64,000 bases of DNA from assembly GCA_963668625.2 (NCBI GenBank), contig CAXXKA010000008.1:288001-352000 (forward strand). Direction: 5' to 3'. This stretch comes from an uncultured candidate division Zixibacteria bacterium. Its GTDB lineage: Bacteria; Zixibacteria; MSB-5A5; UBA10806; 4484-95. This document shows positions 25,305 to 43,566 of the stretch, one piece after another. Position 1 is the first letter of the stretch. Each line of letters starts with the position of its first letter. Position numbers and translations under genes: made by a program. The notes below the pieces were generated by a model. That model was not told where the DNA came from and did no database searches. It saw only the letters and a list, made by a program, of their open reading frames with translations.

Positions 25305-25334
25305 GAAAACATCGCGAGATATTAACTCGCGATG
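25305..25334 (-). terminator. Rho-independent terminator closing the TonB/PorV locus
   Basis: Minus strand reads catcgcgagttaatatctcgcgatgttttct. Confidence 0.65.
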
Positions 25335-25391: not shown

Positions 25392-27035
25392 TCAATCCTC
25401 GATATCAGTCGATAATTTAAAACGCAATATCCTGTTATTACCACTATCGGAAATATACACGGTTCGTCTATCGGCGAAATAATCGTAGGCTATTCCGCGA
25501 GGATGGTTCATATATCCCTCGCTGACCATTGTGGAATCACCGAGCACACCCCAGGATTCCAGGAAATCACCGCCGGGGCCGAATTTGTAGGCGCATAATG
25601 AATCGCCGGAGACCGTATCGGGTGAGCAGACAATATAGATATTGCCGGAGGGATCGACAGTGGCCGCGTTAGGCCGTATATCCAAATTCTCATCAAGATA
25701 CAAATCTACTTCAGGGCCGGGAGTAATCGCCGCCTGGAAATATTGAACATGATAATATGAGTTAATATACCAGCTAAGTAACTGGGTTTTGAAACTCGAG
25801 GAATCCTGCGTCGACAGGAGAAACAAACCGTCGCTTTTTAAAAACGCGGTAATCCCATTAGGATGGTCGGTATAGCTCACTCCGGTACCGTAATCAACGA
25901 TCGGATTATGTGCCGTATCGGGCACATTCGGATCGGCGCCGGCTATCGCGAATTCGGAAGCGACCATGTAGTCGCTATCGTATTCGAGATCGGCAAAACC
26001 GAAAAACATATAAACCTGACCGGTACCATCGAGAAGGCTATCGTAGCCACAGGCTAAATATGTTTTGTCATCGGTAGGCATATCGCTGATATCGGTGAAT
26101 ATGAAATTGTCGGTTATCATTGAATCCGCCGTCGGATTATCAGCCGTAAAACAGATCACCGGCTCACCGTCACCGCCGGGGCCGACATCTATTTTGTAAA
26201 TATCGCTGGTGCCGTTCACTACCAGCAAATGAAGAACCTCGTTCTGGCTAATGCCAGTCGGATGAGGAACATCATAGGTATCGTGGATGGTACCCGCGGC
26301 ATCCAGACGTACGATTCGATTGTTACCGGTGTCGCAAACATACAGATACGTATCCAGTCCGATCAGCATATTGCCCGGGTTCAAGAAACTATAACCATTG
26401 TCATCATCCCATGGCGGATTAAGCTGTATGAAAGTCGTATCGGAGAGCCCGGCTAAAACATCCTGAAGCTTTATGCCGATCTGAACCGACTGTGCGCCCG
26501 AGGGAGGCGTTATCGAGGCAGTCAGAAGTTGCCATTCGCTGGAATTAGCGGAAATCGCGGCCCCACTCGGGGTATCATTATCCCAATAATACATCAACTG
26601 CGCCTGACCGCCTTCATCGTTATCGTATACGTAAATACTACATGTATAAGTCATCTCATCATCAACCGGTATGGGATCACTTTTGATAGTCAGGTCGGAT
26701 TCGGAAATCCAGTATAACTGCGCGCTGTAATCACCGCCATTAACAATTGCTTCTTCCCTGTTGGCGAACAAAGAATCGGATGATAGCTCCCAATCCGACA
26801 GTTCATAATAAGTAGTGCTATCGACTGTTTCCTCCACCCAGGTTTCCATATCGCCGTTACTAATTAGCTGTTCATAGTTCTGGGTATTGGGATTAATCCC
26901 CCATAAAACGGCGTCATCGATATAAACAGCAGCGCTTTCGAATCTAGTTTCCTGAGGACGGGATATTTTCTCTCCACAAGAAAGGATTAAAAACACGATC
27001 ATCATAACCGATACTAATGCTAAAACGTATTTCAT
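25392..27035 (-). CDS. Lipoprotein with CBM-like jelly-roll domain and NHL/beta-propeller repeats
   Basis: Lipobox LILSC; NGDMETW...IGIKL domain; YVCDTGNNRI, HPRGIA, YISDSGNNRILRF NHL motifs. Confidence 0.8.
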   Translation of the reverse strand: MKYVLALVSVMMIVFLILSCGEKISRPQETRFESAAVYIDDAVLWGINPNTQNYEQLISNGDMETWVEETVDSTTYYELSDWELSSDSLFANREEAIVNGGDYSAQLYWISESDLTIKSDPIPVDDEMTYTCSIYVYDNDEGGQAQLMYYWDNDTPSGAAISANSSEWQLLTASITPPSGAQSVQIGIKLQDVLAGLSDTTFIQLNPPWDDDNGYSFLNPGNMLIGLDTYLYVCDTGNNRIVRLDAAGTIHDTYDVPHPTGISQNEVLHLLVVNGTSDIYKIDVGPGGDGEPVICFTADNPTADSMITDNFIFTDISDMPTDDKTYLACGYDSLLDGTGQVYMFFGFADLEYDSDYMVASEFAIAGADPNVPDTAHNPIVDYGTGVSYTDHPNGITAFLKSDGLFLLSTQDSSSFKTQLLSWYINSYYHVQYFQAAITPGPEVDLYLDENLDIRPNAATVDPSGNIYIVCSPDTVSGDSLCAYKFGPGGDFLESWGVLGDSTMVSEGYMNHPRGIAYDYFADRRTVYISDSGNNRILRFKLSTDIED

Positions 27036-27039
27036 CGAA

Positions 27040-28038
27040 CTAATACTCCAATACCACCGAGAAAATGTTAGTGCCGCCGAGATCTTTCATGTCGGTATAA
27101 GCGAAATCCAGAAGCGCGTTAAAACCCGAGGCGTTTATTTTAAGCCCGGCGCCCAGCGAGAAATTTTCGACCGAGGAGTTGAACAGGTAACCGCCCCTGA
27201 GAAAGAGCATATCCTGGTAGCCGTATTCGACACCCATCGCGATATTTTCGGCGTTGTCTGTTGGATGGTTTAACTGTGTCGCCCAGGTAAGCTTTCCGTT
27301 GTCGGTCGTCAGCGGATCGAAAGCCGCCGAAAGCTTGAACACGGTTGGCGAGGAGAACGACTGGTAATCTTTCTCGATCCACTCACCGGATACTGTTTTA
27401 TACCGGAAAGAACCTTCAGGCTTAATCCTGCCCCCGAAATTCGACATATTAATAGCGAAACGAGTTGCGTAAAAATCGGTCTGATACAGAGTGCCGAGAT
27501 CGAACATCAAGGCGCGCATCTTCAAATCGTCCAAGTTTTCCTGCGCGAATTTGATAGTAAGCCCGCAGGAGAAATATTCCGTAAGTCTGATAGCGTATGT
27601 CAACCCGGCCGCAAAATCGGAATAGTCGAACATCTCGCCATTACCGGTCGGATTGTACTCGTCGGTCATCTCGAACGAGTCGGTTCCCAGGGTAATCAAG
27701 TAGGCTCCCAGCACATTCGAGTCATCCAGATGTTTGGTAACCCCGAAAAAACTATGCTTGAACTCTACTACCCATTGACGGTAGGCGAATCCGAAACCAT
27801 CCCTGTCATTGAAAGCGATACCGGCGGGATTGTGGTACAGTGCGAAAGCATCCGTAGCCGTTGCGGTGTAGGCTCCAGCCAGGGAGGCCGCCCTGGCGCC
27901 AACCCCGATTTTCAAAAATGTCATGGCTGAGGTGCCGGAACGCTCCTCGCCCAGGCTGGGGAAAATGTTGCCGGCGTTTGCTGATGAGATAGCCATGATA
28001 ATCAGCAGTACAGTTATAATTCTCGTAACTTTTACCAT
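27040..28038 (-). CDS. PorV/PorQ-family outer-membrane beta-barrel
   Basis: FLKIGVGARAASLAGAY, YHNPAGIA, FDLGTLY, GVEY..MLFLRGGY. Confidence 0.88.
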   Translation of the reverse strand: MVKVTRIITVLLIIMAISSANAGNIFPSLGEERSGTSAMTFLKIGVGARAASLAGAYTATATDAFALYHNPAGIAFNDRDGFGFAYRQWVVEFKHSFFGVTKHLDDSNVLGAYLITLGTDSFEMTDEYNPTGNGEMFDYSDFAAGLTYAIRLTEYFSCGLTIKFAQENLDDLKMRALMFDLGTLYQTDFYATRFAINMSNFGGRIKPEGSFRYKTVSGEWIEKDYQSFSSPTVFKLSAAFDPLTTDNGKLTWATQLNHPTDNAENIAMGVEYGYQDMLFLRGGYLFNSSVENFSLGAGLKINASGFNALLDFAYTDMKDLGGTNIFSVVLEY

Positions 28039-30818
28039 GCTATTGATATCCCCAGTTTGATATTACGCGGCGCCAAGTATCTGGCCGGATCGAACGGGTA
28101 AGGATAGGTCGGAGAGATATCCGGGTTTATCGGATCGTTCCAGCTTGGCAGAACTTCATCTCCATACTCGTAAGCCGTGCCGGTTAGCGGATTAATTATC
28201 TTGGAATTATTTTCGTTAGTAAGATTCGTAATTTCGAGGAACAACGAATATTTCAAACCGAAGGCCTCGAAATGTTTCTTTACGCTCATGTCTATCCAGC
28301 GCCAATCCTCGGCTGTTTTGCTATAAGGATCGTTGTTGTTCTTGATATATTCCGGTTCCTGGCCGACCTTCTCGATCTTCGTATAGGTGGTATACCTCTT
28401 ACCGGACTGCCAGAAAAAGCGAAGGTACAGATTCCATTTATCGGGAAGATTGAACACTCCGAAATGATAACGGTCTCCCTCATTGGCGAACAGGGAAACA
28501 TCAGCGGATAGACGGAGCGGCCTGTCCCAGGAAAGGTAATTCTCTTTAATCGATTTCTCCTCGAGCTCGCCCTTGGCCACCAGAAGCTCATCCTTGGGAG
28601 AGGAACTCTTACCGGTTGCCACCGAGTACGATCCCTGCAGGATGATATTCATCAACTTGCTGGCGCGTTTCTTGTACTCTATCTCGATACCGCGTGAACG
28701 AGCATAGTCGAGATTGAAATACATCTGGAAACTCTGGTTGGCATACCTGCCGCCCTGCGAGATACTGAACGAAGCGATATAATCGAAAATATCTTTGTAA
28801 TAAGTCGTTACCGAAAGAACGTCATTGGTGGTTATCTCGTAGCGCATACCCAACTCGTACGATACGGTCGTCTCCGGATTCAAATTAGGGTTGCCGAACA
28901 ACGGGTAGGATGAGTTCGTACTGACCGAGGATAGCTTGGCATAAACTCTCTGCGGCTGTGGTAATTTCGAGAAATGGCCGTACGAATAAAAAAGCATCAC
29001 ATTATCCAAAACCGGGTGGGAAATACCCAGCCTGGGGGAGAGATGGCTTTTACCGCGATGGCCGAAGAAATCGAAGGTATCGTTAATGTACGATTGTTTC
29101 AAATTATCCGATATTATCTCGGACTTCTGGTCGATCACCAGATCATCCACATAATCTCCGGGGAGCCACCAATCAAAGCGAAGACCCAGGTTTATGATAA
29201 GACCGAACGACGTGATCTTGTCCTGAACGTATACCGCACCGGTGTTCGGGTACACTTTATATATATCATGGTCGAGCCCAAGACCGTCCTGGCCGATACC
29301 TGGCTTGTTAATATCCACCATCTGGATTTGCTGCAGGTTAGACTCGAAACCGGCCTTAGCTACGTGCTTATCGCCGATACTCAGGTTGGCGTCGTACTTG
29401 AAAGTAAACTGTTCGAAATAATAGTCGCGCCACTCTTCGGCTTCACCGTAATCATAGAAACCATCACCGGTGGTTATTTCATAATGCGAATCGTCTATAC
29501 CATCGTTGGGGTTGGAATCCGGTACAAAGAAATAGTTAATCGGTAATATGTCGATGGGCTCCTCGAGATAGTCATCCCAGTTATTATCACCGACCGCATT
29601 ACGCATCTGGGTGAAAAAGCGAGAAAGCCTGAATTCATGGAAAAATCTCGGGCTGGTCGTATGTGAAAAGAGCAAGCTTTGTTGATTGGAAACCCTGGTA
29701 CGCGTGCTATAATCCTCAAGAATATTTTGATACTGGAAAGGGTACGAATCGAAATCGGGATTAGGGTTTTCGAAATCATTGGAATCGAATCCCTGGTTTA
29801 TGCTGGCCGATCCCTTGAACGTTCCCACCAATTTCATTCTGGGGTTAAAGCGATGAGTAAGCTTAAACAGCCCCGAATACTGGTTAGCTTCTCGCGGGGC
29901 GAATTGAGTCCCACCGAAAAGCGAGGAACGCAGATTATGCGTGTGAGGCAGATAAGTATCTGAAAGGTTCGAATAAGCTGAAAGGAAAAACGATGTTTTT
30001 TTCGAAAGTATAATCGGCCCGGAAAGCTGTAACTCGGTAACATCCGAATTGAAATTTGAGGCGTCGAATATTCCGAAATCATCCGTCTTGTAAGAAAGCT
30101 TACCGGAATAATTCTCTACCGAGCCCTCTTTGGTTTTAACCTGAACGACACCCGACATAGCCTGGCCGTATTCGGCGTTAAATCCGCCGGTTAACACCTC
30201 GAACTCCTCGATAGCGCCGGCCGTGACTGTCAGTCCGCCGGTACCGCCGGTGTACGGATCTTGAATCGAGATGCCGTCCACGAGATACGAGTTCTCGTAC
30301 GATCGCCCGCCTCGAATATGTATATCATTTCCGATAGCCACGACACCGGCCTGATTTTTCACCAGGTCGGCCACATTTTCAACCACCAACTCATCGATTT
30401 GCCTCGCACCCAATGTCGTACCGCTCTCGGTTTGTTCGATATCCATAAGGGGCTTCTCGCCGAGCACGACAACGCTGTCGCCGGCTATGAACGTTTCGGT
30501 TAGTTGAAAATCTATCACCAGCGTATCGTCATCGGCAACCTTCACACCTGTGCGAAGAATCGGTGTATAGCCGATCAATCGGGCCTCGATATTGTAAGTC
30601 CCGCCCTTCATATTTTTAATCTTGTAGCGACCGGCGAAATCGGTCTTGGCGCCATAGTAAGTACCTTTAACCATCACCGTAACACCGATAAGCTCTTCGC
30701 CGTTTGCCGAATCGGTGACAACACCCATGATGACCGTATTCTCGGCCCTGGATATTTGGAATGTACTTACGATGAATACTAATATGCAGGGTATTAAAAG
30801 TAGAAATCTTTTACTCAT
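28032..30818 (-). CDS. TonB-dependent receptor with N-terminal carboxypeptidase-regulatory-like domain
   Basis: Start MSKRFLLL (signal); GVVTDSANGEELIG; plug IHIRGGR, GGFNAEYGQAMSGVV; SPRLGISHP; GNPNLNPETT; PRNIKLGISIAW. Confidence 0.92.
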   Translation of the reverse strand: MSKRFLLLIPCILVFIVSTFQISRAENTVIMGVVTDSANGEELIGVTVMVKGTYYGAKTDFAGRYKIKNMKGGTYNIEARLIGYTPILRTGVKVADDDTLVIDFQLTETFIAGDSVVVLGEKPLMDIEQTESGTTLGARQIDELVVENVADLVKNQAGVVAIGNDIHIRGGRSYENSYLVDGISIQDPYTGGTGGLTVTAGAIEEFEVLTGGFNAEYGQAMSGVVQVKTKEGSVENYSGKLSYKTDDFGIFDASNFNSDVTELQLSGPIILSKKTSFFLSAYSNLSDTYLPHTHNLRSSLFGGTQFAPREANQYSGLFKLTHRFNPRMKLVGTFKGSASINQGFDSNDFENPNPDFDSYPFQYQNILEDYSTRTRVSNQQSLLFSHTTSPRFFHEFRLSRFFTQMRNAVGDNNWDDYLEEPIDILPINYFFVPDSNPNDGIDDSHYEITTGDGFYDYGEAEEWRDYYFEQFTFKYDANLSIGDKHVAKAGFESNLQQIQMVDINKPGIGQDGLGLDHDIYKVYPNTGAVYVQDKITSFGLIINLGLRFDWWLPGDYVDDLVIDQKSEIISDNLKQSYINDTFDFFGHRGKSHLSPRLGISHPVLDNVMLFYSYGHFSKLPQPQRVYAKLSSVSTNSSYPLFGNPNLNPETTVSYELGMRYEITTNDVLSVTTYYKDIFDYIASFSISQGGRYANQSFQMYFNLDYARSRGIEIEYKKRASKLMNIILQGSYSVATGKSSSPKDELLVAKGELEEKSIKENYLSWDRPLRLSADVSLFANEGDRYHFGVFNLPDKWNLYLRFFWQSGKRYTTYTKIEKVGQEPEYIKNNNDPYSKTAEDWRWIDMSVKKHFEAFGLKYSLFLEITNLTNENNSKIINPLTGTAYEYGDEVLPSWNDPINPDISPTYPYPFDPARYLAPRNIKLGISIAW

Positions 30819-32253
30819 CGGCAAACTCGTTTTGCAATATATGTGTAAATATCTGACGGAAACCGTCATTAACGTTACAATCGAAAACAGGGAAACTGAA
30901 AAACACCAGCCTGGCAGGCTCCTGTGTCGAGGCATCTGGATCGTAGGGGAATCGTACAGCCATAGTATCGCCAATAGCGCCGGCATCATTAGCCGCCCCG
31001 ATCTGGTAAATCGCGGCGATACCATCACCAATTAATCCCTCGGGTTTTGCCGGGGCAAATGAAAAGTCATGAGATATCGACTGTGTCGTTCTCAATTCGT
31101 AAGGATATCCATCCATGAGATTAAGAGAATCCGGCTGGACGAATAAAGTCGGCCTGAAAACGTCGGTGTCATAAATAGAATCAACAGGCATAAACGGATA
31201 TATGATCGTATCCGAAGTCGAATAATCAGTATTTAAAAATACGTGACCGCCCGAGTTGATGAAGTTCGTAATGCCTGTTGCGGTTCGATCGAAATTCCTC
31301 GCGGTACCGGCGTTGTAAACCAGTATATCGAAATCCCTCAAACCATGCTCGAAATCCTGACTGTAGTAAATCGGCCGATCCGTAAAATCAAGAGAGGTAA
31401 ATTCAATACCGAGATCGTTCATGACAGCGGAAAACATCGTATCAGCCAGGATAGACTGGTACGAGTTGTCATCAACATACAGTACCTCGCCATGAGGCTC
31501 GAGTACCTGCCATACGCCGGTAGTCTCCGGGTAGTACACGACATCGCTGTAAGCTCCCGCGATATCCTGACATCTGAGGAACACTCGATAGTAACCTGAA
31601 TCGAGTTCCTCGAACGTATGGGTAAATGTCAGCGAATCGAGCCTTAGCCAATCGGACTCCAATGAGTCCTTTTCGTGCACCCATTGAATCGAGGAATCCA
31701 TAAGGCATATCTCGTATCCTGAAATCGACTCGTCGCCGTCGGGATCGCTCGAGATCCAGGTGAACGTATGATATCCCAGCGTAACCGAGTGCTCGGAGGC
31801 ATACTCGTTTATGAACGTGGCCGGGAAATTCACTGTCGGCGCGGAGTTTATTATCGGGAAAGTCAGAGATGAAGGCGAGGGGTCAATTGCCGAATCCGAA
31901 TCCATCGCTCTGACGTAAAACGTGAACAGATCGACTAACGTATCGATCTCCACGTAGAACGTGTCCATAACATCCTCGGTGAATGACCAGGCGCCGTCGA
32001 CCGTGGTATCATCCCATGCCCACTCGTAACCTATCACTTCACCGTCAGGATCATCGCCATACCAGTGCAACACCAGCATACTCGCCGAGGTGTCGGGCAT
32101 GGCCGTGGAATCGATAACTCCGAGAGAGTCACCGATTGCCAAAAATAGATGAGTATCGGGCGGCCTGTTAGGATTCGGATTCGATACTTTCTTATCCGTA
32201 CAGGCCGCCAGACCCATCATTATCGCCAGTAGAAAAATTATTAATTTCTTCAA
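30811..32253 (-). CDS. Acidic lipoprotein of unknown function (Ig/FN3-like repeats)
   Basis: Lipobox LAAC; NRPPDT; two W.G/S.DPDG repeats; FYVRAMD...DPSP. Confidence 0.8.
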   Translation of the reverse strand: MKKLIIFLLAIMMGLAACTDKKVSNPNPNRPPDTHLFLAIGDSLGVIDSTAMPDTSASMLVLHWYGDDPDGEVIGYEWAWDDTTVDGAWSFTEDVMDTFYVEIDTLVDLFTFYVRAMDSDSAIDPSPSSLTFPIINSAPTVNFPATFINEYASEHSVTLGYHTFTWISSDPDGDESISGYEICLMDSSIQWVHEKDSLESDWLRLDSLTFTHTFEELDSGYYRVFLRCQDIAGAYSDVVYYPETTGVWQVLEPHGEVLYVDDNSYQSILADTMFSAVMNDLGIEFTSLDFTDRPIYYSQDFEHGLRDFDILVYNAGTARNFDRTATGITNFINSGGHVFLNTDYSTSDTIIYPFMPVDSIYDTDVFRPTLFVQPDSLNLMDGYPYELRTTQSISHDFSFAPAKPEGLIGDGIAAIYQIGAANDAGAIGDTMAVRFPYDPDASTQEPARLVFFSFPVFDCNVNDGFRQIFTHILQNEFADE

Positions 32254-32274
32254 TTTCTATCGCAAATATTCTTG

Positions 32275-34272
32275 TTACTTCAACAACATCATTTGCTTGC
32301 TGTCAACGAAATCACCTGCTTCGATTCGGTAGAAATATACACCGGATGCTACCGAATTGCCAAAACTATCTTCGCCATGCCAGGTGATACTGTGATTACC
32401 GACCGCGACATCGCTCTGGTAAACCTCGTAGACTTTTCTGCCCAGTACGTCATATATCGAAAGCTCGACATCACACTGCTCGGCCAGAGAGAACATGATC
32501 GCGGTGCTCGGGTTGAACGGGTTAGGGTAGTTCTGGCTCAAAGCGGTCTGCACAGGCAAGGCAACCTCGTCATCAACATCACCGGCATCCTGGAAATCAG
32601 CATACATTCTCGGCATGAGCTGATAGTCATCGTTAGGCGGATTGTTGTATGAATACTGACCGAGGCAACCGGTAATCTGCTGCGGTACTGTCGGCATAGG
32701 TTGGCCGGGGATATCAGTACCGTAATCGATTCTCATCATAAGATCACCGGTACCGTCATTTATAGTCATGGTGGCGGACTCACCACCGGCAGGCCACGGA
32801 TCGGGATCAGCGGTAATGATGCAGGGTGAAAGCACAACCACGCGGCCCTCGTACAATTCACCATTACCCTCGTTAAGCTGGGCACAGGTAACGGACACAG
32901 GATCGACTATTCCTTCGGCTTCGCCAAAATTAGTAATCCTGTCGACCTCGCTGACCTCGAGTTGGTTTTTGCCGTAATACTGGGCAATAACGCCGGTAGC
33001 CTGAACCGAATCGCCGATCGATATAGTAGCCTCATCGCTAAACAGTATTACATCGATACCGGCATCGTCCATCTGCATGAAGAAATCGGTGCGTCCGCTG
33101 CCGAAATTGTAACTGGTAGCGATACCTGTCAGGATAGCCGCGGAATCGAGCATATCGGGAATGAAATTTTCATCGGCATCGACTATGGCCTCGGCTATAG
33201 TCATCTCCCTCGGATTGAGTATCACGTAGGTTTTGAAATTCCACGGAGCCTCGGATGGCTCGGTACGTTCATTACCCTCATCATCATCAGCCCAGATATA
33301 GAAATCTATACGAGTACCGGCCGGTAACGGAGGTATGTTATAGAAAAAGTCGTTATCCGATCCCTCGGACATACGCACGTTTATCCAGCTTCCCAGGTTG
33401 AGCCTGTAATACAAACGAACGATATTTACTTCACCGTCAGGATCGAACACGTTGGCCGAAATATTAACCGCATCATTCTCAAAGGGGTGATCGGGATACC
33501 ATTCAATATTACCGATAATCGGCGCTCCGGACGGGAACGCGATATCCCTCATGTAACGCGGCTGCAAGTTGTAGTTATCGAAACGATGATAAACCACGCC
33601 GTTGACATACTCGAACTGCGTACCGACCGTAGGCAGGTAAGCGATGGAATCGGATGCCTCGCGTACCATAAACTGATGACCGGTGGAGTCGTGACATACC
33701 CAGGTAGCTGAGCTGGAATACACAACCAGCGAATCCACGGTTACGTCATAAACCCTGATATAACAACCCTCGAACTGCTCGGCCAAAGAATCAGCCCCGC
33801 CGGTCGAGTCGATAAGATCGGCCGTCACTACTATCGGCTCCGGTTCCGGATTACCGAACGAGTGGAAATCCCAGGTTCCCGGCACGATGAACAATTCGGT
33901 CATATTGCATGTCCATGGTGGGTCGTAGCTTGGAGAGTACCCGTATTCGCTAACCAAAGCGTCGACCGTAATCGAATCGCCCGGAATCAGGGTCGGGAAA
34001 TTATCCGGTGAGGGATTGTAAGCCATAACACCGGAAAACGGGCCGCCCTCGGCCATCTCCATGTAAAAAGTTACGCCGTCACCTGCGTAATACAGGCCGG
34101 TACCAGCCGTGACAATACCGCCCACATGAACGGTGTCACCCTCGTAATGTGAGCTATCCTCTCCAACAGGAACTTCCTGTATATCTCTAATGCTAACTTC
34201 AGGGTATTGCGCGAAACTGAATGCCGCCAATACCAGCACGCCAAGCATGGCCATAACCATAGCTTTGTTCAT
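32275..34272 (-). CDS. Secreted protein with two ExeM/YhcR-like OB-fold modules, an Ig-like domain and a T9SS-type sorting domain
   Basis: SIRDIQ..GIVTA..EY..TEL..EQFEG..LQPR and TIAEA..G..T..GDSV..G...YYG...ELYEG..LMPR; NYPNPFNP CTD. Confidence 0.8.
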   Translation of the reverse strand: MNKAMVMAMLGVLVLAAFSFAQYPEVSIRDIQEVPVGEDSSHYEGDTVHVGGIVTAGTGLYYAGDGVTFYMEMAEGGPFSGVMAYNPSPDNFPTLIPGDSITVDALVSEYGYSPSYDPPWTCNMTELFIVPGTWDFHSFGNPEPEPIVVTADLIDSTGGADSLAEQFEGCYIRVYDVTVDSLVVYSSSATWVCHDSTGHQFMVREASDSIAYLPTVGTQFEYVNGVVYHRFDNYNLQPRYMRDIAFPSGAPIIGNIEWYPDHPFENDAVNISANVFDPDGEVNIVRLYYRLNLGSWINVRMSEGSDNDFFYNIPPLPAGTRIDFYIWADDDEGNERTEPSEAPWNFKTYVILNPREMTIAEAIVDADENFIPDMLDSAAILTGIATSYNFGSGRTDFFMQMDDAGIDVILFSDEATISIGDSVQATGVIAQYYGKNQLEVSEVDRITNFGEAEGIVDPVSVTCAQLNEGNGELYEGRVVVLSPCIITADPDPWPAGGESATMTINDGTGDLMMRIDYGTDIPGQPMPTVPQQITGCLGQYSYNNPPNDDYQLMPRMYADFQDAGDVDDEVALPVQTALSQNYPNPFNPSTAIMFSLAEQCDVELSIYDVLGRKVYEVYQSDVAVGNHSITWHGEDSFGNSVASGVYFYRIEAGDFVDSKQMMLLK

Positions 34273-34285
34273 CTTGTACTCCTTT

Positions 34286-36427
34286 TCATTTAATGATAAC
34301 TATCTTTCCTCGTTGTACATCCCCCGAAACATCGTTCTTTACCGTATATAAATACATACCAGTTGCCAATGCTTGGTCAGCCTCCGAGACAACATCCCAG
34401 CTATGCATACCGCCGGAAAATTCTATGTCGCCCTCGGCGAAATCCTCATACCAGGCTATATCATCGCCGTTATACGTATCTGAGTCATGAGAAAACGCAT
34501 CGACGATTTCGCCCGCCAGAGTGTAAATCGTTACTGTACACTTATTGGGAAGATTATAAAAATGTATCATTCTTTGACGTTCCTTCGGGCCATCGGCGCT
34601 TCGACCATCCCAGCTCGCGAAAGAACGATAGGGATTAGGAAACACTCCGACCTTAGCATCCGCAGCAGCAGCCTCGGGGCCGGGAAACACTCTATTATAG
34701 TTAACCAGCGGACTCGATTCGAGGCTCTCGAGGTTATTAGCCGGATCGCCCGTATCGAATGCTGTTACGGAATAAATATACTGCCAACCGTTCAATAAAT
34801 CATTATTGGTTAATTTATAATACATCGAATCGCCATCGATTACTACTGGCATATCCAGCCTGACATACTCCAGGCCGGTATTAAACCCGATTGAATCAAC
34901 CAGGTCGAACTGGCCTATCATCTGCAACAGGTCTTTCAATCCCTGGCTTTGATTATCCTGAGTAATCCGGGCGCGATAAATTCGATACCCTTCGAAATCA
35001 GCTCTGCCCAAAACCGGGTCGACATAAGATTCAGGCGAGTTATCCCAATAAACCTCAACCGTATTATCCAGGGCCCGTACTTTCATGGTAGGCGGCGGCG
35101 GGGCAGAGGGTAAAATATACCTATCTATGATTCCATTAGGCGGCGTTCCTCCGGGCCCCTCCTGATCCTCGCCGGGATCGAGAATACCATTAGAATTTTT
35201 ATCTTCACCGTCATAAGCGATCTGCGCCCATCTGGCGTTATTTACGAGATTCGTTTTTGATAATTCGGTATCATCGCCGATCGGATCGGGGCCGAATTTA
35301 GACGCGCACACCAGGGCGAACACGACCTGCATGGTTGAATCGGGCATTAAGGTCGGAAACGGCCCGGTCGATATCAACATAGTCCAGTTGCTCGAGGCGT
35401 AGCAGTCGGCCGACCAACCGCTGCGAGGTGTATCGTTAAAGCCGTTGGAAAGTCTATCGTAACGAGTGTTATCGCTTACCGGAGCGATAAACCACAAATT
35501 CGGATCACTGGAGTTATTCCATTTCCAGATATTATAATTGACTGCCGCCGAGTCGGTATACAGTATCCGGTTATCGAACTCATCCCGATAAGCGGGCGGT
35601 GTACTACCGAGCACCCTGCAGCCAATGTAACTTTCAGCGAAACCGTCATCGCCATCGTTTTCGTATGAATAACCCATTGCCATACTATCGATAAAATTAC
35701 AGGGATCATCATAGAAACTCCAACTCCTGTTTGGGCCGCTAAAAGGAGTCAACTCGGCATTTCCTATAGTGGGCTCGTACCAGTAACCAACCCAGATATC
35801 GTCAATAGGTGAGTCGCTATTATTGGTTATATCAAATGAAAAAATCACGAAAGCATCGGCAAACGGTAAACTCCAGGAGTATGTCTCCTGATGCACGTCG
35901 ATACCGAATGGATCATGGTTGGGAATTTCAGATTGGTTACCGTAGGCATCCACGACGAATCTGGAGGAGTCGGAGAAATCACAAATAAAATCCTGATGGC
36001 TTATCGCCTCGGGGTGGAAAAAACGAGAGCTTGTCAAGCTGGAGCGCTCTTCTATCTGGTAGATAACCGAGCCGGTATCGCGAGTGGTAAATTCGAATCC
36101 CTCGGTGCCCTCCGCTTCCGGGTATGCATCAACGGCGCCCGTTGAAACTTTACGTTGACCGTTTTGCTCTCCACCGAACCACAGGCCTCCCATCCACAAA
36201 TGCTCTATACTGGAGCCGATGGGATATTCACACGAGGGCTGATCATCTTTTTGAAAAGCCGTACCGTAGACCCCGTAGTTGGTGATTGTTAGGCTAATAT
36301 CCCCAATTGTGGTATAGTGTGTATCGTCATCAAGGGCTATTGATGAGTAACCTGCTATAACCATCGATAATACCGCAATGCTCATGATGATGAGACTTTT
36401 TATATTTCTTTTTTCGGATGATTTCAT
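34286..36427 (-). CDS. Large secreted protein typical of FCB TonB/PorV loci (FN3-like + CTD-like C-terminus)
   Basis: Signal; ITNYG..G; EYPIGS..EHL; Ca-binding-like DKNSNGILDPGED; FEGYRIYR; VFPNPY...IYTLAGE...WD...ATGMYLY. Confidence 0.8.
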   Translation of the reverse strand: MKSSEKRNIKSLIIMSIAVLSMVIAGYSSIALDDDTHYTTIGDISLTITNYGVYGTAFQKDDQPSCEYPIGSSIEHLWMGGLWFGGEQNGQRKVSTGAVDAYPEAEGTEGFEFTTRDTGSVIYQIEERSSLTSSRFFHPEAISHQDFICDFSDSSRFVVDAYGNQSEIPNHDPFGIDVHQETYSWSLPFADAFVIFSFDITNNSDSPIDDIWVGYWYEPTIGNAELTPFSGPNRSWSFYDDPCNFIDSMAMGYSYENDGDDGFAESYIGCRVLGSTPPAYRDEFDNRILYTDSAAVNYNIWKWNNSSDPNLWFIAPVSDNTRYDRLSNGFNDTPRSGWSADCYASSNWTMLISTGPFPTLMPDSTMQVVFALVCASKFGPDPIGDDTELSKTNLVNNARWAQIAYDGEDKNSNGILDPGEDQEGPGGTPPNGIIDRYILPSAPPPPTMKVRALDNTVEVYWDNSPESYVDPVLGRADFEGYRIYRARITQDNQSQGLKDLLQMIGQFDLVDSIGFNTGLEYVRLDMPVVIDGDSMYYKLTNNDLLNGWQYIYSVTAFDTGDPANNLESLESSPLVNYNRVFPGPEAAAADAKVGVFPNPYRSFASWDGRSADGPKERQRMIHFYNLPNKCTVTIYTLAGEIVDAFSHDSDTYNGDDIAWYEDFAEGDIEFSGGMHSWDVVSEADQALATGMYLYTVKNDVSGDVQRGKIVIIK

Positions 36428-36598
36428 TACTACCGCTTTTTGATCTTTTATTAAAAAAAACTACTTCCAGTTGACTGCTATTTTTTACCTGTATTCATTA
36501 GTAATATATAAATTATTTCTTACATTAAAAGCATTATTTTACACTATTTTTGTTATTATTCCGTTAACTATTTTAGACTTAAAATTAACACTCGTATC

Positions 36599-36636
36599 AA
36601 AAAAAACGGTCGCCCCGCATAAGCGGAACGACCGTC
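36599..36636 (-). terminator. Rho-independent terminator after the giant dockerin protein gene
   Basis: Minus strand reads gacggtcgttccgcttatgcggggcgaccgttttttt. Confidence 0.75.
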
Positions 36637-36649
36637 AAGAAAAACCTAC

Positions 36650-39600
36650 TTACTTCGATATGTTGAGGTTGTTATTCTGTTTAATCTGAGAGGAGGAGGT
36701 AGAGGTGGTAGAGTTATCGCAATTCGGCCAACCGGCAGGCGCGGTCGCGGGAAGCTCTTCCGGAGTGGTCCACTCGGGAGTGTAATCTTCCTCGTCGCCA
36801 ACATCATCGCCGCAATACTTGAGCGTATTAGCGCCACGGAAGTATTGGACGAGATAAGTCACGTCAGCACCGATTACAGAGCAATCGCCGTTAGCATCCG
36901 CCGAGGCATAAAATCCATCAAGCAAACACGGAGTCGATATGCCGCGGAAGTAGTTTACCAGGTAAGTAACGTCAGCGCCGATAACGTTCGGCGGCCAGGC
37001 AGTAACAGCGTACATATTGGCATCACCGGGTAGATATTCGTAATTATCTCCGCCTTCCTCACAGTTGAGGCCGGTATCGAAATCATCATTGGAGCGAGGC
37101 TGAACTCTCCAGTAGCCCCAGCGCCAGCGTACCACACCGGTTAAACCATCAATGCGCTGACCAACTTCAACGGAATCGAAATTGGTATATTTGCCGTCGA
37201 AAGCGATCGTGTCGGCATTGTCCGTCAGGGACATGATAAGTACACGAGCAGTGTCGTTGCTGGTTTCCATCGATACGATTTCGAGAGAATCGCACAACTG
37301 GACCAGGACGCCCTCGAAATTCTCGCGATAGGCATCTAAGGTGTTGTACTGGAAATCGCCGGCATCATATGTCTTGTAGGTCGGCTCAGCGACGCCACTG
37401 CCAACTATAGTAACATTTTTGAAATCATCAATATTGGAGATCTCGGTAGCGCCGTAATATTCGGTTACCTGACCCGTCAGGATAACGGTATCACCTTCAA
37501 CGGGGCGATCCATACTTGCATCCCAATACTGATAGCTGCCATAGCAAAGTACACCGTTATTAGTAGTGCCGCTAAGGTCGCTGATATAGATATTATTGTA
37601 CGTGAAAGCGGTCGTATCGGCAATGATACAGCCTCTCATGGTAATGATAGCATCGAGCAGATCACTCGGGTAGGTATTGTCTACACCAGGATCGGTGGTT
37701 GTCTGTACCATGTTGATAGGGGTAAAGCCCTGATAGAACGGGGTGCTCACGGGTGTAGTAATACCAATACCTGAGCTATCCGTGACGTTAGCCACGGTTA
37801 CCTCATCGAGAATACCGTTACCCATCGCCGGGCTGAGTGTCAGGAATACTCTGACAAGATCGGCATCCAGCGCGGCAGCCGTAACCGACAGGCCACTGGT
37901 AATAGTATAGTTACCCGGGGTTTCGGCGGAACCCTGATCCAGGGCGCGATCGAACATCACGCACAGGGTCGACTGATCGATCGGGAAGGAAGCGGTAACT
38001 GTCGGAGGAGGCACGATGTTAACCTGAAGGTCGGAATCCATACGCGGTTGAAGTTTAAGACGATCGTCGTACTGGTCGTAAGTAACTATACCGATGACAT
38101 AATCGTATACGAGGTCGGTTGACGGCGGGTAAGCCGAGAGAGTCATGTCATAGATATCGGGTCCGAGAAGTACGGAATCAGCGCCGGAACCGGAATCGGT
38201 GATCCACCATTTGCCATAACCGGGTGAACTACCAACGGTGACATCCTCGATCTGAACGAGAACACCCTCGTAAGCCTCACCGGTGAAACTGCAGTCGCCA
38301 AGCGGCAGCAGGTCACTTATGGAGATGACGAGCGGATCAGGTACGGGAGTATTCGTGCCGAGCAGGGTGTATTCGACTAACGAATCGAGTTCGGTTATAC
38401 CGACATACTCACTGACAGTGGCGCGAACCTGATAGTAATCGCCGATAGCGGCGGTTTCAAGGTCGACTTCCTGAGTGGCCGAGGTCAGATCATACCAGAG
38501 TATACCCTCATAGGTAGTACCTTCGGGATCCTGAATGAACAGACCGGTGCCCGAACCCTGGTTATCGACAGCGGTAACGACGCCGCAAACCTCGACAATA
38601 CCGGAATCGACAAAGGTTGACGGGTAGCAGTTATCGAGAATGTTATCGAAAGGATCGAACGAGTTCTGTATCTCGAAAATAGTGTTCGTAGCGGTACATT
38701 CGATAGCTTCCGTCTGGAAATCAGCAGCACTTCTGGGCTCGAGCCTGTTAGCGCTATAAGCATATTTATGAACACCGGTGATAGTGTAATATTCTTCACC
38801 GGTAGCAATCGGGAGAGAATCCAGCAGGTCGTCATCAACCAGGAATGTATCATTGCTGGCGTCAAAAGCCCAGTAACTGCCATGATCGGCTACTTCACCA
38901 ATGGTAACATTGCTGACTACGACAAGCATATTCTCATAAGCCTCGTCGGCTTCATCACAAGCATCGGTAATATCCGAGCCATCAACCAGAATCGGTGTAA
39001 CGACATTGCCGCTGGAAACCAGGGTAACATCCGTCACGTTAGTAAGCTCGGTTAAACCGTAGTACTCGGTAACATCAGCGGTAATCTCAACCAGATCACC
39101 AACCGCGAAACTTGAGAGATCATAAGAACCGGCATAAACCCAGATACCACCGTAGGTGGAAGCAGCAGGGTCCTGCAGGGACATGGCACTACCCAGAATG
39201 CCGGTAATAATACCTGTGGTGGTAATATCAGTCTCACCGCTGTGCGGACCATCATAACAATCACCACCGGTGGCAGGGTAGTTTAATTCGTTGATCGTGT
39301 AATCAACGGTGGTACCACCATCATCGATATCCGAAGAAAATCTCGGGTATACCCGGTATTTATCGTAGTAATAATGAACAATACCTACAATGTAGTCGTA
39401 AGTTTGACCCTGCACCAGATCAACTGGATTATCCGTGCCATATTTATGCATCTGGTCGTCCACAGCGCAAGAATCAGAAGCGCCGGCGGTTTTAACCCAG
39501 GCCACATTATCAGCATCGGGACCAACGACACAGGTTACATTTTCCAATTTGACCAGTACGCCTTCATAAGCCTCTGTCGAACCGTTACAATCAGCGTTAA

Positions 39601-41308
39601 GATTATCTGAAGTAACCGTGGTAGTGCAAACTGAATTACCCGTAGAATTGGTCGTTACCGACACGACACTGGAAAGCTGAGAACAGCCGTAGTATTCGGC
39701 AACCGAACCAATTACCGTGACATTATCGCCTATGCTCAGGCTATAATTATCATCATAAACATAAATACCGTTCCAATCGGTGGTGGTACAATCTTGAATG
39801 TAGAAATCAGGATAAGAACCCTGATTAATACCGGTAACCGTACCGGTAACTGAGATATTTTCAGACAAGCGAGGTGAATCATAGCAATTGCCATTAGCCT
39901 CAATCGTGTACTGAACATCATAGATTGACACTTCCTCGGGACCGCCGGCAACCAGATTGAATGAACAATCATCCACATAAACTGTAGCATCGCCGTCCCA
40001 ATTGTCGGAATCATCATAACACCTGATACCGACCTTAACGGAAGTGGCGCCTGTCGGGGCCGCCGTCGAATAGGTCATCAATTGCCAATCGGCCAGATCG
40101 GAGGAATAATTGCTTGACCATGTATTACCGGTATCCCAGGCAAAATAAATCGTGATATCGCCTGCGATATCGTTGTCGTAAACATAGAGACTACAAATAT
40201 ATGTTTCTTCAGCCGTAATTGTAAACGAATTCGAGAAAAGCTCACAGTCTGCTTGTATTTGAGAGGTCCAGGTCAGATTAGCGCTGTAGCTTCCGCCATG
40301 GACGGTGGTGCCTTCCTGGGCTCCGGTAATCGAACCGCTGGCATCCAGTTCCCAACTATCGGCAGGGCCGGTAGCACCGTTCTCGGTCCAGAGCTCGAAG
40401 TCGCCGTTCTCGAGGCTAGCGCTCGGGTAATCCGAAACGGTATAGTTATTAACGTAGGATTCTACGCGCTCACCATCGTCATCTTTAACCTGCACATAGT
40501 ATTCAACCAGAGTACCAGCCACCTGAGCCGGCATAGTATACCAGTAATAACCATCGGTAGCATCAATGCTATCGTGATATACAGCGGTATACGCCAGAGT
40601 CGGGGCTGTTGTCTGGTAGTAAAGACTGTCATCATCAATAGTGCCATCGGAATCGGTTAATTCCGACCAAACCAATACGACATCATCAGGCAATACGGTC
40701 GGGTAAGGATCACGGTAAACGAATCCTATTTCCGGGGGCTGATTCGCGCCGCCCGTTCCCTCGAACAAGGTAACATCATCGACAAAAACGGTGGCATCGC
40801 CGTCCCAATCACCCGAGATATCATACTGCCGAATAAGAATTTTGCCATAGGCAGCGCCGGCGGCGGCATTCGCTGCAAAGCTGTATTCTACCCAGGCGGC
40901 GGAATCCGAGGAATAGACGCCCGAATAACTGGCCGATAGATATGCCTGTCCTGAATCATACCACTCGAAACATAAACGAAGTCGACCGGCAATATCATTA
41001 TCATACATCCAGGCATAAACCGTATAAAGCTCTTCGCCCGTAACGGCGAACATATCGGAAACGAAATCCTGATTGGACTGTGAGGTCCAGGTCAGGTTTA
41101 CGCTATAACTGTCACCGTGAACTGTTGTGCCTTCCTGAGAACTGGTGAAATCCGAATTATCGTTAGTCCAGTTATCAGGCGGTCCACTCGTTCCACCGGT
41201 CCAGCTTTCAAAATCGCTATTAGCGATCGTAACTGGAGTCTGGGCGAAAGCGGGAATACACAATACGGCCGACATCATAATAGCCAGCAATATCTTAATC
41301 TTCATCAT
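36650..41308 (-). CDS. Giant secreted protein: 2 CBM4/9-like domains, 4 ExeM/YhcR-like OB-fold modules, Ig-like domains, C-terminal dockerin
   Basis: Signal MMKIKILL after RBS gaaagga; two N.DFE.W...VDD repeats; four I..(Q)..G.VT..QD..G..GD.V...V.EY.G...E.YEG.LV...PR..D modules; GDAN..IGADVTYLV duplicated dockerin. Confidence 0.85.
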   Translation of the reverse strand: MMKIKILLAIMMSAVLCIPAFAQTPVTIANSDFESWTGGTSGPPDNWTNDNSDFTSSQEGTTVHGDSYSVNLTWTSQSNQDFVSDMFAVTGEELYTVYAWMYDNDIAGRLRLCFEWYDSGQAYLSASYSGVYSSDSAAWVEYSFAANAAAGAAYGKILIRQYDISGDWDGDATVFVDDVTLFEGTGGANQPPEIGFVYRDPYPTVLPDDVVLVWSELTDSDGTIDDDSLYYQTTAPTLAYTAVYHDSIDATDGYYWYTMPAQVAGTLVEYYVQVKDDDGERVESYVNNYTVSDYPSASLENGDFELWTENGATGPADSWELDASGSITGAQEGTTVHGGSYSANLTWTSQIQADCELFSNSFTITAEETYICSLYVYDNDIAGDITIYFAWDTGNTWSSNYSSDLADWQLMTYSTAAPTGATSVKVGIRCYDDSDNWDGDATVYVDDCSFNLVAGGPEEVSIYDVQYTIEANGNCYDSPRLSENISVTGTVTGINQGSYPDFYIQDCTTTDWNGIYVYDDNYSLSIGDNVTVIGSVAEYYGCSQLSSVVSVTTNSTGNSVCTTTVTSDNLNADCNGSTEAYEGVLVKLENVTCVVGPDADNVAWVKTAGASDSCAVDDQMHKYGTDNPVDLVQGQTYDYIVGIVHYYYDKYRVYPRFSSDIDDGGTTVDYTINELNYPATGGDCYDGPHSGETDITTTGIITGILGSAMSLQDPAASTYGGIWVYAGSYDLSSFAVGDLVEITADVTEYYGLTELTNVTDVTLVSSGNVVTPILVDGSDITDACDEADEAYENMLVVVSNVTIGEVADHGSYWAFDASNDTFLVDDDLLDSLPIATGEEYYTITGVHKYAYSANRLEPRSAADFQTEAIECTATNTIFEIQNSFDPFDNILDNCYPSTFVDSGIVEVCGVVTAVDNQGSGTGLFIQDPEGTTYEGILWYDLTSATQEVDLETAAIGDYYQVRATVSEYVGITELDSLVEYTLLGTNTPVPDPLVISISDLLPLGDCSFTGEAYEGVLVQIEDVTVGSSPGYGKWWITDSGSGADSVLLGPDIYDMTLSAYPPSTDLVYDYVIGIVTYDQYDDRLKLQPRMDSDLQVNIVPPPTVTASFPIDQSTLCVMFDRALDQGSAETPGNYTITSGLSVTAAALDADLVRVFLTLSPAMGNGILDEVTVANVTDSSGIGITTPVSTPFYQGFTPINMVQTTTDPGVDNTYPSDLLDAIITMRGCIIADTTAFTYNNIYISDLSGTTNNGVLCYGSYQYWDASMDRPVEGDTVILTGQVTEYYGATEISNIDDFKNVTIVGSGVAEPTYKTYDAGDFQYNTLDAYRENFEGVLVQLCDSLEIVSMETSNDTARVLIMSLTDNADTIAFDGKYTNFDSVEVGQRIDGLTGVVRWRWGYWRVQPRSNDDFDTGLNCEEGGDNYEYLPGDANMYAVTAWPPNVIGADVTYLVNYFRGISTPCLLDGFYASADANGDCSVIGADVTYLVQYFRGANTLKYCGDDVGDEEDYTPEWTTPEELPATAPAGWPNCDNSTTSTSSSQIKQNNNLNISK

Positions 41309-42067: not shown

Positions 42068-42607
42068 TTAAACTAATTTATCAAGCAATAGCCGGGCGGC
42101 TTCCGAGGCTGAGTATATAGTAGAGTCTATTTTTAATAACGGTTCTTTTTCATATGCATAATCGTAACCGAACCCCGGTAATTTCGTTAACCCCTGCTGT
42201 GCCCGTTCATACAGATTGACAATCTCCGCTCGATCAGTACGGTTTTTCTCCCTTTCGATACAAATCTCAATCGGACAATCGATCCAGACGACCTGCAAAC
42301 CCTTAATGCGCTTACGGGCCATCTGACGACCGCAACCCTGCCCGTCAACCGAATCGATGATAGCGTTAACACCATATCTGTTAAGAAGTTCGGCGGTTAG
42401 AATAGCACAGCGATAAACCAGTTCTCTTTCCTCGCGGGTAAATTGCGGATTGGGAGTAATAAACTGGCGTATTTCATCCAAACGAATATATTCGCAAACT
42501 AGCTTATTGTCATCTAATAGCTTGATGAGTTCTTTGGAAATAGTAGTCTTTCCCGAGCCGGATAGCCCGGTTACCCATAAAGTCCAGGGTTTCTCTATTG
42601 CTGTCAC
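42068..42607 (-). CDS. Adenylyl-sulfate-kinase-like P-loop kinase, copy 1
   Basis: WVTGLSGSGKTT, LDEIR, IIDS, WIDCPIEICIERE; GTG start after ggag chosen by comparison with the paralog. Confidence 0.8.
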   Translation of the reverse strand: MTAIEKPWTLWVTGLSGSGKTTISKELIKLLDDNKLVCEYIRLDEIRQFITPNPQFTREERELVYRCAILTAELLNRYGVNAIIDSVDGQGCGRQMARKRIKGLQVVWIDCPIEICIEREKNRTDRAEIVNLYERAQQGLTKLPGFGYDYAYEKEPLLKIDSTIYSASEAARLLLDKLV

Positions 42608-43517: not shown

Positions 43518-43566
43518 TATTTCCGAATCCGGTATCTGCATAAAATATTAAGTACATGTAGGTATC

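Follow-up and report, generated by a model that had tools for sequence, protein, structure and literature searches.

Loci that encode a DUF5689 protein together with a TonB-dependent transporter have been tied to the use of DNA in 2025 (PMC12478041) and to natural transformation in 2021 (PMC8459023), in the portions of these accounts drawn on here only in Bacteroidota. In Bacteroides thetaiotaomicron, ddbABCDEF is required for the depletion of exogenous DNA; its TonB-dependent transporter is DdbC, on which an AlphaFold3 prediction places DdbD, a protein of the DUF5689 family that is proposed as the DNA-binding partner of DdbC and is structurally similar to the dsDNA-binding domain of p202, PDB 4JBM (Sharan et al., PNAS 2025, PMC12478041). 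The same paper relates the ddb loci to the Riemerella system, DdbC and DdbD being homologous to RA0C_RS04915 and RA0C_RS04920, and in R. anatipestifer both the DUF5689 protein RA0C_RS04920 and the CarboxypepD_reg barrel RA0C_RS04915 are essential for transformation (Huang et al. 2021, PMC8459023). Oligonucleotide/oligosaccharide-binding (OB) regions also matter in secreted nucleases: deletion of the OB domain of Vibrio Xds abolishes its nuclease activity, the LTD being dispensable, and Shewanella ExeM loses nearly all activity when its YhcR-like region, termed "two putative OB-fold regions", is deleted (PMC6085458 and PMC6746945, which cover ExeM, NucH and Xds). Here, a seven-gene locus at positions 25392-41308 of a 64,000-nt stretch of DNA from an uncultured Zixibacteria bacterium (hereafter the window, meaning the whole stretch analysed) is compared with these systems. 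There is, in our estimate, an even chance that this locus captures nucleic acid from outside the cell, in all likelihood DNA, at the surface and imports it by a TonB-dependent route; on that reading it is a Zixibacteria variant, differently built, of the Bacteroidota loci in which DUF5689 proteins and TonB-dependent receptors (TBDRs) act in DNA utilisation or uptake.

The seven genes, named g1 to g7, are all read from the minus strand, in line with the co-orientation described in an earlier note made from the letters of the window:

g1, 36650-41308, minus strand: 1552 aa counted from the MMKIK start; the longest open reading frame (ORF) opens at 41344
g2, 34286-36427, minus strand: 713 aa, secreted
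g3, 32275-34272, minus strand: 665 aa
g4, 30811-32253, minus strand: 480 aa, lipobox LAAC
g5, 28032-30818, minus strand: 928 aa from the signal-peptide start
g6, 27040-28038, minus strand: 332 aa
g7, 25392-27035, minus strand: 547 aa, lipobox ILSC

Along g2 to g7 there are first two gaps, of 13 and 21 nt, then two overlaps, of 8 and 7 nt, and last a gap of 4 nt, the stop of g4 overlapping the start of the TBDR gene g5, so that the tight or overlapping arrangement claimed for the last six genes holds (gaps of 4-21 nt, overlaps of 7-8 nt). The terminators formerly placed at 36599 and 25305 correspond to two strong terminator-like hairpins:

36605-36636, minus strand: intrinsic terminator 3' of g1 and immediately past it, 14-bp stem, 9 of its pairs being G-C, and a T-run
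25310-25334, minus strand: intrinsic terminator 3' of g7, 9-bp stem with 6 G-C pairs and a T-run

On account of these hairpins g1 is a separate transcription unit and g2-g7 form an operon; an Rfam search of the window returned no match. The gene g1 is nevertheless counted as linked to the operon because three domain types are common to both, namely the modules described below and an Ig-like domain with g3, and jelly rolls with g7. Pfam and NCBIfam matches, together with the lipoboxes of g4 and g7, agree with the labels given earlier to the TBDR, the lipoproteins, the NHL protein and the C-terminal domain (CTD) of g3, and in the same two libraries none of the seven proteins shows an endonuclease/exonuclease/phosphatase (EEP) or other nuclease domain, a SusD family or a glycoside hydrolase, as had been said.

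The nucleic-acid reading starts from six modules of about 200-230 aa, four in g1 and two in g3, which are 20-32% identical in pairs and share a common motif in their alignment; all six segments align with the motif quoted in the earlier note, whose count of four and two is thereby upheld:

M1, 39314-39943, minus strand: g1 aa 456-665, tandem OB by AlphaFold2 model and Foldseek, with a sub-threshold DUF5689 match
M2, 38705-39313, minus strand: g1 aa 666-868, from the six-module alignment and one NF033681 stretch
M3, 38015-38704, minus strand: g1 aa 869-1098, from NF033681 and the module alignment
M4, 37067-37738, minus strand: g1 aa 1191-1414, from NF033681 and the alignment, with a sub-threshold tRNA_anti-codon OB match (E 5.6e-4)
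Ma, 33529-34212, minus strand: first module of g3
Mb, 32581-33252, minus strand: second module of g3

The NCBIfam model of the ExeM/NucH nucleases, NF033681, matches g1 in four stretches (E 4e-43, the best being aa 499-604 on model positions 1-112) and g3 once (aa 408-481 on model positions 38-108, E 5e-5). Only positions 1-112 of the 546 in the model are covered in g1, and the whole-protein scores of 148 bits for g1 and 22 bits for g3 fail the cutoff of 300 because the EEP domain is missing; Exo_endo_phos of Pfam has no match in either protein. Pfam DUF5689 (PF18942) runs almost end to end through M1 at 18.6 bits (E 0.0019) and matches Mb at 20.4 bits. The AlphaFold2 model of M1, built from 14 aligned module sequences, consists of two five-stranded barrels (pLDDT 90.5, pTM 0.89), and that of the whole of g3, with 50 orthologues aligned, has a mean pLDDT of 87. 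In the Foldseek comparison of M1 with the PDB, the listed matches are almost all OB-fold proteins, among them the Teb1 AB tandem OB (4e-5), p204 HINab bound to dsDNA (8.6e-4), CST, RPA, POT1 and the HIN domains of p202 and IFI16, with TMt values up to 0.66 for single OB folds; they include PDB 4jbm, p202 on dsDNA, which is the entry used by Sharan et al. for DdbD. Since these matches are nearly all OB proteins, the objection that the modules are not OB folds fails, and the earlier proposal of ExeM/YhcR-like OB modules gains the agreement of the NF033681 region, of the M1 model and of its structural neighbours, the AlphaFold and Foldseek comparison suggested at that time having been run on M1. 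Each module is, as far as the models go, a predicted tandem OB fold of the ExeM/NucH-DUF5689 type, and we infer that the modules bind nucleic acid. The Foldseek search with the whole g3 model was discarded, being swamped by multi-domain beta-sandwich chains and informative only when a single module was folded; PDB sequence searches with g1, g2 and g4 gave no match, and a search for longer homologues of Mb found none.

In relatives, the catalytic domains joined to these modules are phosphoesterases. A module profile matches 19,707 cluster representatives at E<=1e-3, 10,738 at E<=1e-10 and 2,477 at E<=1e-30 among 1.84 billion searched, and the best 149 representatives (P0061 excluded) carry 2-7 modules each. 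Every fourth of these 149 multi-module proteins (n=37) was scanned with Pfam at E<=1e-5: CTD-type domains were found in 22, DUF5689 in 8 (e.g., P0190, 112.8 bits), LTD in 7 and a sortase in one, and the catalytic domains were one Exo_endo_phos (P0210) and one PLDc_2 (P0166, NucT-like), with catalytic domains of carbohydrate-active enzymes (CAZymes) in 0 of the 37. Thirteen proteins share words with M1, including g1 itself (P0101), its orthologues P0250 and P0251, which are 57-59% identical over M1, and two relatives of particular bearing: P0255 is a full ExeM/NucH nuclease (NF033681, 678 bits against a cutoff of 300, model positions 1-546) and P0256 is a metallophosphoesterase with a CTD; two of the 13 bear the JGI name "predicted extracellular nuclease". 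The catalytic partners of the modules in relatives are thus EEP (P0210, P0255 and a protein of locus L061, described below), PLD/NucT-like (P0166) and metallophosphoesterase (P0256) domains. An initial phmmer count of EEP in 26 of the 149 proved to be an artefact of short matches beside the CTD and was discarded together with the charge statistic derived from it.

Gene neighbourhoods also speak for the nucleic-acid reading. The 80 loci available for comparison were fetched through a g3 alignment scan keyed on the CTD motif, so that in 78 of them the likeness to g3 goes no further than the CTD, L001 and L070 being the two relatives of g3 over its full length; the cassettes came to light when the seven window proteins were compared by BLASTP with every ORF in the set. 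Three of them are close to the window. L070 keeps the gene order of the window, with g2 (38%), g3 (27%), g4 (28%), TBDR (42%) and PorV-like (40%) counterparts and an NHL protein; L036, from Balneola, has g2 (35%), g4 (25%), TBDR (32%) and PorV-like (31%) counterparts and an NHL protein; and L061, from Rhodothermaceae, has g2 (34%), g4 (26%) and TBDR (34%) counterparts, its contig stopping within the TBDR. A hidden Markov model of the module matched six ORFs in five of the 80 loci, among them, in each of the three close cassettes, the protein at the g3 position, which has three modules in L070, an LTD, two modules and a CTD in L036, and two weak modules and a CTD in L061. In L061, moreover, a divergent gene encoding one module and an Exo_endo_phos domain adjoins the cassette. 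Outside this pattern, a module protein of L055 adjoins a FadL/PorV-like barrel. No CAZyme was seen among the ORFs scanned around the cassettes of L070, L036 and L061. Also recorded near these cassettes were a phosphate-selective-porin-like gene (L070 4270-5415, minus strand, Porin_O_P E 2e-6) and an RNase Z-like gene of the metallo-beta-lactamase fold (L036 3966-4823, plus strand, E 4e-17, under cutoffs); in L061, a single frame at 5025-9005 (plus strand) has a module/CTD protein (CTD at aa 741-815 of 1274) running into the g4-like lipoprotein, which is either a fusion or an assembly error.

The transport side of the operon belongs to a wider group. The g5 protein is a TonB-dependent receptor with matches to PF00593 (8.8e-27), PF13715 (CarbopepD_reg, 1.6e-16) and PF07715 (Plug, 9.4e-12) and a barrel of the 22-strand type; against TIGR04056 (SusC/RagA) it scores 60.4 bits, where 368 are needed, over the N-terminal 210 positions only, and, judged by this family model, it is not a SusC-type TBDR. 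No SusD-family match occurs among the seven proteins in Pfam or NCBIfam. The comparison with a polysaccharide utilisation locus (PUL) made in the earlier note keeps its TBDR, lipoproteins and surface proteins, with a receptor that is not of the SusC type. The adjoining lipoprotein g4 has no family in Pfam, NCBIfam or PDB sequence searches and matches neither DUF5689 nor the modules, ESM Atlas places it nearest to unnamed clusters of the FCB group, and its homologues in the 80 loci are confined to L070, L036 and L061; it may serve the TBDR as a lid or as a partner at the surface. The g6 protein passes the PorV/PorQ family model NF033709 (199 bits, cutoff 90) and falls under the PorV equivalog NF033710 (82.9 bits, cutoff 250) as well as under the PorQ and PorV2 equivalog cutoffs; these scores describe a PorV/PorQ-family outer-membrane barrel that is a paralogue and not the PorV equivalog, so that the former label of PorV is right at the level of the family and too narrow beyond it.

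The g2 protein shows loops resembling EF-hands, a region that is Fn3-like and, at about 34289-34660, a divergent CTD-like tail; it has no Pfam family and is placed in ESM Atlas only in unnamed FCB-group clusters, the DUF4960 neighbour of the g2/g4 placement (score 0.91) being no more than a lead. The tail scores 16.5 bits against TIGR04183, below the 23 required, and the last 120 aa or so form a CTD-like sandwich with an insertion whose motif is kept in 10 of 10 cassette proteins. The g2 homologues of L070, L036 and L061 are alike over their full length (34-38% identity). In the alignment of g2 with these three, the EF-hand-like loops "DKNxNGxLDPGED" and an N-terminal block "SxxYP...EH...GxWxG" are invariant, and no catalytic motif is recognisable. 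Cognate PorV-like barrels are described as keeping a CTD uncleaved, as in PorQ-PorZ (in the part used here of a review on type IX secretion systems, T9SS, PMC10202324). When g6 was modelled together with the C-terminal 179 aa of g2, the predicted complex reached a score of 0.90, the best of three controls being 0.00; the mark is reached by 116 of 157 solved complexes and by 2 of 215 mismatched pairs, a calibration that is rough here on account of custom alignments, and solved PorV-CTD-type complexes may exist, so that the pass may reflect likeness only. At least 91% of the contacts agree between runs, the partner pLDDT is at least 71, and the interface lies on the conserved CTD-like strands; the CTD-like tail of g2 is accordingly modelled, and no more than predicted, to dock on g6.

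Nine of the 80 loci, from Cloacimonadota, Marinimicrobia, Balneola, Rhodothermaceae and other lineages, contain the same trio of TBDR, protein with a g2-type tail and PorV-like barrel, with differing cargo adjoining it. In six distant loci (L030, L077, L047, L073, L011 and L067) the TBDR is 26-29% identical where measurable, the large protein resembles g2 only over the C-terminal 180 aa or so, and the PorV-like barrel is 29-33% identical; g4 and the modules are absent from these six, of which L030, L077, L047, L073 and L011 were scanned with Pfam. The neighbours in these five are GH94 in L030, two GHL10 genes in L073, ExbB-ExbD-TonB inside the trio of L011, a CBM20-like CTD protein and a sulfatase in L077, and a CBM48 CTD protein in L047. 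A wider proposal, which is put forward tentatively and which we regard as rather doubtful, is that of an undescribed uptake architecture in FCB-group bacteria that lack SusD, in which a TBDR and a dedicated PorV/PorQ barrel permanently holding the uncleaved CTD-like tail of a g2-like protein would wire T9SS export to nutrient import, the Zixibacteria version being specialised for extracellular DNA by scaffolds that carry non-catalytic tandem OBs in multivalent array and are anchored by CTD and dockerin, in short a "DNA-osome". No published account of a PorV-like/TBDR operon or of the recurrent trio was found; none was found either of such a Zixibacteria locus, and the supplements of Sharan et al. 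and Huang et al. may list relatives outside Bacteroidota.

The scaffolds that carry the modules differ in their likely anchoring. The giant g1 is secreted and comprises two jelly rolls, the four tandem-OB modules with an Ig-like domain among them and, at its C-terminus, a dockerin-like segment; g3 combines its two modules with an Ig-like domain and a CTD, and g7 is a lipoprotein with an NHL beta-propeller (NHL and SGL matches in Pfam, PknD-type NHL matches among PDB sequences). Their parts other than the modules are the following:

40709-41239, minus strand: g1 jelly roll 1, about aa 24-200, 26% identical to g7 aa 58-193 (E 6e-9), with no Pfam or NCBIfam family at E<=10
39944-40441, minus strand: g1 jelly roll 2, about aa 290-455, 37% identical to g7 aa 58-192 (E 3e-21)
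37739-38014, minus strand: Ig-like spacer of g1, lying between M3 and M4, with a weak match to SWM_repeat (E 0.0043)
36809-37066, minus strand: g1 dockerin-like two-repeat segment, by likeness to the C-termini of P0060 and P0067
33253-33528, minus strand: g3 Ig-like domain between Ma and Mb
32278-32529, minus strand: g3 T9SS type A CTD (TIGR04183 36.5 bits, cutoff 23; PF18962 27.9 bits, cutoff 27)
26421-26918, minus strand: g7 jelly roll, CBM4_9-like (CBM_4_9 E 7e-4, 20.4 bits, cutoff 25.9)

Neither g1 jelly roll is assigned to a family by Pfam or NCBIfam. The dockerin claimed for the giant protein finds a basis in the 45-49% identity (E 7e-12 and 3e-15) of its C-terminal segment to the C-termini of the g3-like proteins P0060 and P0067, which carry precomputed PF00404 (dockerin type I), and lacks one in Pfam itself, where the segment has no match to PF00404 at E<=1. 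No T9SS CTD is found in g1 by Pfam or NCBIfam, so that the T9SS export pictured earlier is unsupported for g1, and no cohesin occurs among the seven locus proteins and the 40 other ORFs of the window. Elsewhere, P0075 and P0079 combine a cohesin (PF00963) with a T9SS CTD, their likeness to g3 being limited to the CTD; proteins of this kind, of which the window contains none, could be surface receptors for dockerin-bearing proteins such as g1. About 65 full-length homologues of g3 are known, those with a named source being Zixibacteria metagenome-assembled genomes, and PF18942 (DUF5689) is precomputed on 18 of these 65. The g1 orthologue P0251 and the g3 orthologue P0008 both list an 11,627-nt longest JGI contig, which hints at the same linkage elsewhere.

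The capture of extracellular DNA is favoured over other ligands because phosphoesterases, and never CAZymes, are fused to the modules in relatives, because the OB region is needed for the activity of Xds and ExeM and DUF5689 is tied to the Ddb and Riemerella DNA systems, and because all three close cassettes hold a module-bearing protein at the g3 position, L061 with a module-EEP protein in addition. Several observations nevertheless weigh against it. Both DUF5689 matches of the window modules lie under the gathering cutoff of 28.6 bits, and four of the six modules have no match to this family at all; as a whole module, M1 superposes on HIN domains with a TM of only 0.36-0.40 in Foldseek; the likeness of g5 to DdbC and RA0C_RS04915 is one of CarboxypepD_reg, Plug and barrel architecture alone; no secreted nuclease is found among the seven locus proteins and the 40 other window ORFs; and the close synteny comes from a small and accidental sample, three loci out of a set fetched for the CTD, while in L001 the g3-like protein lies amid housekeeping genes, without the cassette. 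Nor do the accounts of Xds, ExeM, Ddb and Riemerella, in the portions drawn on here, report direct measurements of nucleic-acid binding by DUF5689 or ExeM-type OB domains, and the part of Price et al. consulted on the lids of TonB-dependent transporters mentions neither DUF5689 nor DNA. The net charge of the g1 modules, -23 to -34, is also unusual for DNA binders. This last point was the caution entered in the earlier note, and it loses force, since the nuclease-fused modules are just as acidic and acidity does not set the window modules apart from them: modules fused to catalytic domains carry -22, -21 and -18 (P0210), -22 and -19 (P0166), -9 (L061), -25 and -25 (P0255) and -28 (P0256), and a negative net charge, with a median of -22, is common to all 460 modules of the 149 representatives. 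All seven locus proteins are acidic, the five surface proteins having a pI of about 4.05-4.2 with 3-6% K+R; acidity is an exoproteome trait, because the cytoplasmic proteins of the window have an ordinary pI (5-9.7) and its other CTD proteins are acidic, and a salt-in halophile as its source was rejected on the same range of cytoplasmic pI. If real, DNA binding would probably need divalent cations, given the acidity of the modules.

The most substantial rival reading takes the locus for a PUL-like system whose substrate, a glycan or some other polymer that is not a nucleic acid, would be bound by the OB modules and jelly rolls and imported as oligosaccharides by the TBDR. An OB fold alone leaves the ligand unfixed between oligonucleotide and oligosaccharide, the acidity of the modules would suit this reading too, and the CBM4_9-like jelly rolls, one in g7 and two homologous copies in g1, leave room for a carbohydrate component, as does the weak, sub-threshold CBM_56 match (E 1e-4, Pfam) in the middle domain of g3. 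Since the distant trios adjoin GH94, GHL10 and CBM20/CBM48 proteins and a sulfatase, the platform of TBDR, g2-like and PorV-like proteins is itself generic and not DNA-specific; the version of it close to the window is the one tied to OB modules. CAZymes carried consistently by homologous loci had been named beforehand as evidence that would overturn the nucleic-acid reading; they are present beside some of the distant trios and were not seen among the ORFs scanned around the three close cassettes. With no CAZyme in the locus or in the ORFs scanned around these cassettes, none among the 37 sampled multi-module proteins as opposed to the EEP, PLD/NucT-like and metallophosphoesterase fusions, and an OB domain needed for the activity of two characterised DNases, the glycan system is held to be unlikely.

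Natural transformation, in which the modules would bind intact DNA and the TBDR would pass it to ComEA/ComEC-type machinery, is not separable from the main reading by sequence analysis and is favoured by an operon without nuclease and, in the published portions cited above, by the essential role of a DUF5689 protein and a CarboxypepD_reg barrel in R. anatipestifer, to whose system Sharan et al. relate the ddb loci. It is considered quite improbable: no ComEC, ComEA, DprA or ComF was recognised in the 40 ORFs of the window outside the locus, a set of six modules on a pair of large scaffolds, with an NHL lipoprotein in addition, rather resembles bulk capture, and a secreted-type nuclease adjoins the L061 cassette. 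The least probable of these alternatives, in our opinion very unlikely, sees in the module proteins adhesins of the cell surface, or organisers of the matrix, that tether cells to eDNA-rich biofilm or detritus (eDNA, extracellular DNA) or to their own surface, the TBDR having an unrelated substrate. CTD-anchored non-catalytic multi-module proteins are indeed very common, as the size of the family indicates, L001 encodes such a protein without the cassette, and g1 is a transcription unit of its own; against this, g3 lies inside a tightly packed operon with the TBDR, and the arrangement of a g3-type protein with a TBDR recurs in all three close cassettes, which belong to other lineages.

If the locus does capture extracellular DNA, the modules would bind it multivalently, probably through divalent cations, and concentrate it at the cell surface; g6 would keep the CTD-like tail of g2 uncleaved and so anchor g2 beside the TBDR, in the way PorQ holds PorZ, and g4, g7 or both may be surface partners of the receptor. 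The captured polymer might then be cut by nucleases encoded elsewhere, or DNA might be threaded as in Riemerella, and the TBDR would move oligonucleotides or DNA to the periplasm, either as a source of phosphorus, nitrogen or carbon or to serve transformation. In sediments, the habitat of Zixibacteria, a large share of these three elements is present as extracellular DNA, and to our knowledge the organisms that capture it there, and their means, are poorly known. If true, the DNA reading would extend the principle of DUF5689 and TBDR loci to another phylum, in a different form, with non-catalytic, multimerised OB scaffolds anchored by a CTD or a dockerin and with a PorV-like barrel built into the uptake operon. 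The module family is very large and essentially uncharacterised outside nucleases, so that one binding assay would annotate thousands of proteins.

The surroundings of the locus include genes with a possible link to phosphate or nucleotide salvage at 42071-47045. Directly upstream of g1, genes for APS-kinase-like P-loop kinases (42071-42634 and 43695-44237) form divergent pairs with genes for HAD-IIIB acid-phosphatase-like proteins lacking an obvious signal peptide (42747-43514 and 44363-45124), and beyond these pairs lies a major facilitator superfamily transporter of the GlpT/PgtP/UhpC organophosphate family (45585-47045). At the other end of the window, positions 1-4846 encode three more T9SS CTD proteins of pI 4.05-4.6 (1-852, with FG-GAP; 2376-3671; 3746-4846). 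A Mut7-C RNase-domain protein (14415-14897, minus strand) and a GH57 alpha-amylase/4-alpha-glucanotransferase (12120-14249, plus strand) look cytoplasmic and have no apparent tie to the locus.

Set beside the described systems, the locus comes closest to ddb, with which it shares a non-SusC TBDR of the CarboxypepD_reg type encoded together with DUF5689-type tandem-OB protein(s) in a PUL-like layout, and a HIN/p202-like fold, PDB 4jbm being matched by M1 and DdbD alike. It differs in that the modules are multimerised (four plus two) on scaffolds of CTD and dockerin-like type, whereas ddb has a single lipoprotein lid; in that the TBDR-adjacent g4 is of another, unnamed family without DUF5689, the modules being carried by g3 and g1; and in that a nuclease is missing from the window locus, though present in the related L061, while a PorV/PorQ paralogue, g2 and an NHL lipoprotein are added, all in the phylum Zixibacteria. 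With the Riemerella system, in the portion of its description used here, the locus has in common a surface protein of DUF5689 type and a CarboxypepD_reg barrel with a proposed role in DNA binding and outer-membrane passage; there, however, a single protein combines choice-of-anchor J, DUF5689 and DUF5017, and competence genes are not among the window ORFs near the locus. The OB region is the same as that of ExeM/NucH/Xds (model positions 1-112), and the module relative P0255 is a full member of that family, although g1 and g3 have neither EEP domain nor LTD and their modules are repeated and non-catalytic. SusC/SusD PULs offer the same operon logic of TBDR, surface lipoproteins and surface binding proteins, from which the window departs in a TBDR that is not SusC/RagA by the NCBIfam cutoff and in having no SusD and no CAZyme. 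Finally, PorQ-PorZ and SprF/PorP with type B cargo resemble the g6-g2 pair in placing a PorV-family barrel beside a protein whose CTD-like tail it is predicted to hold, with the difference that the pair of the window sits in a TonB-dependent uptake operon rather than in a secretion, attachment or gliding module.

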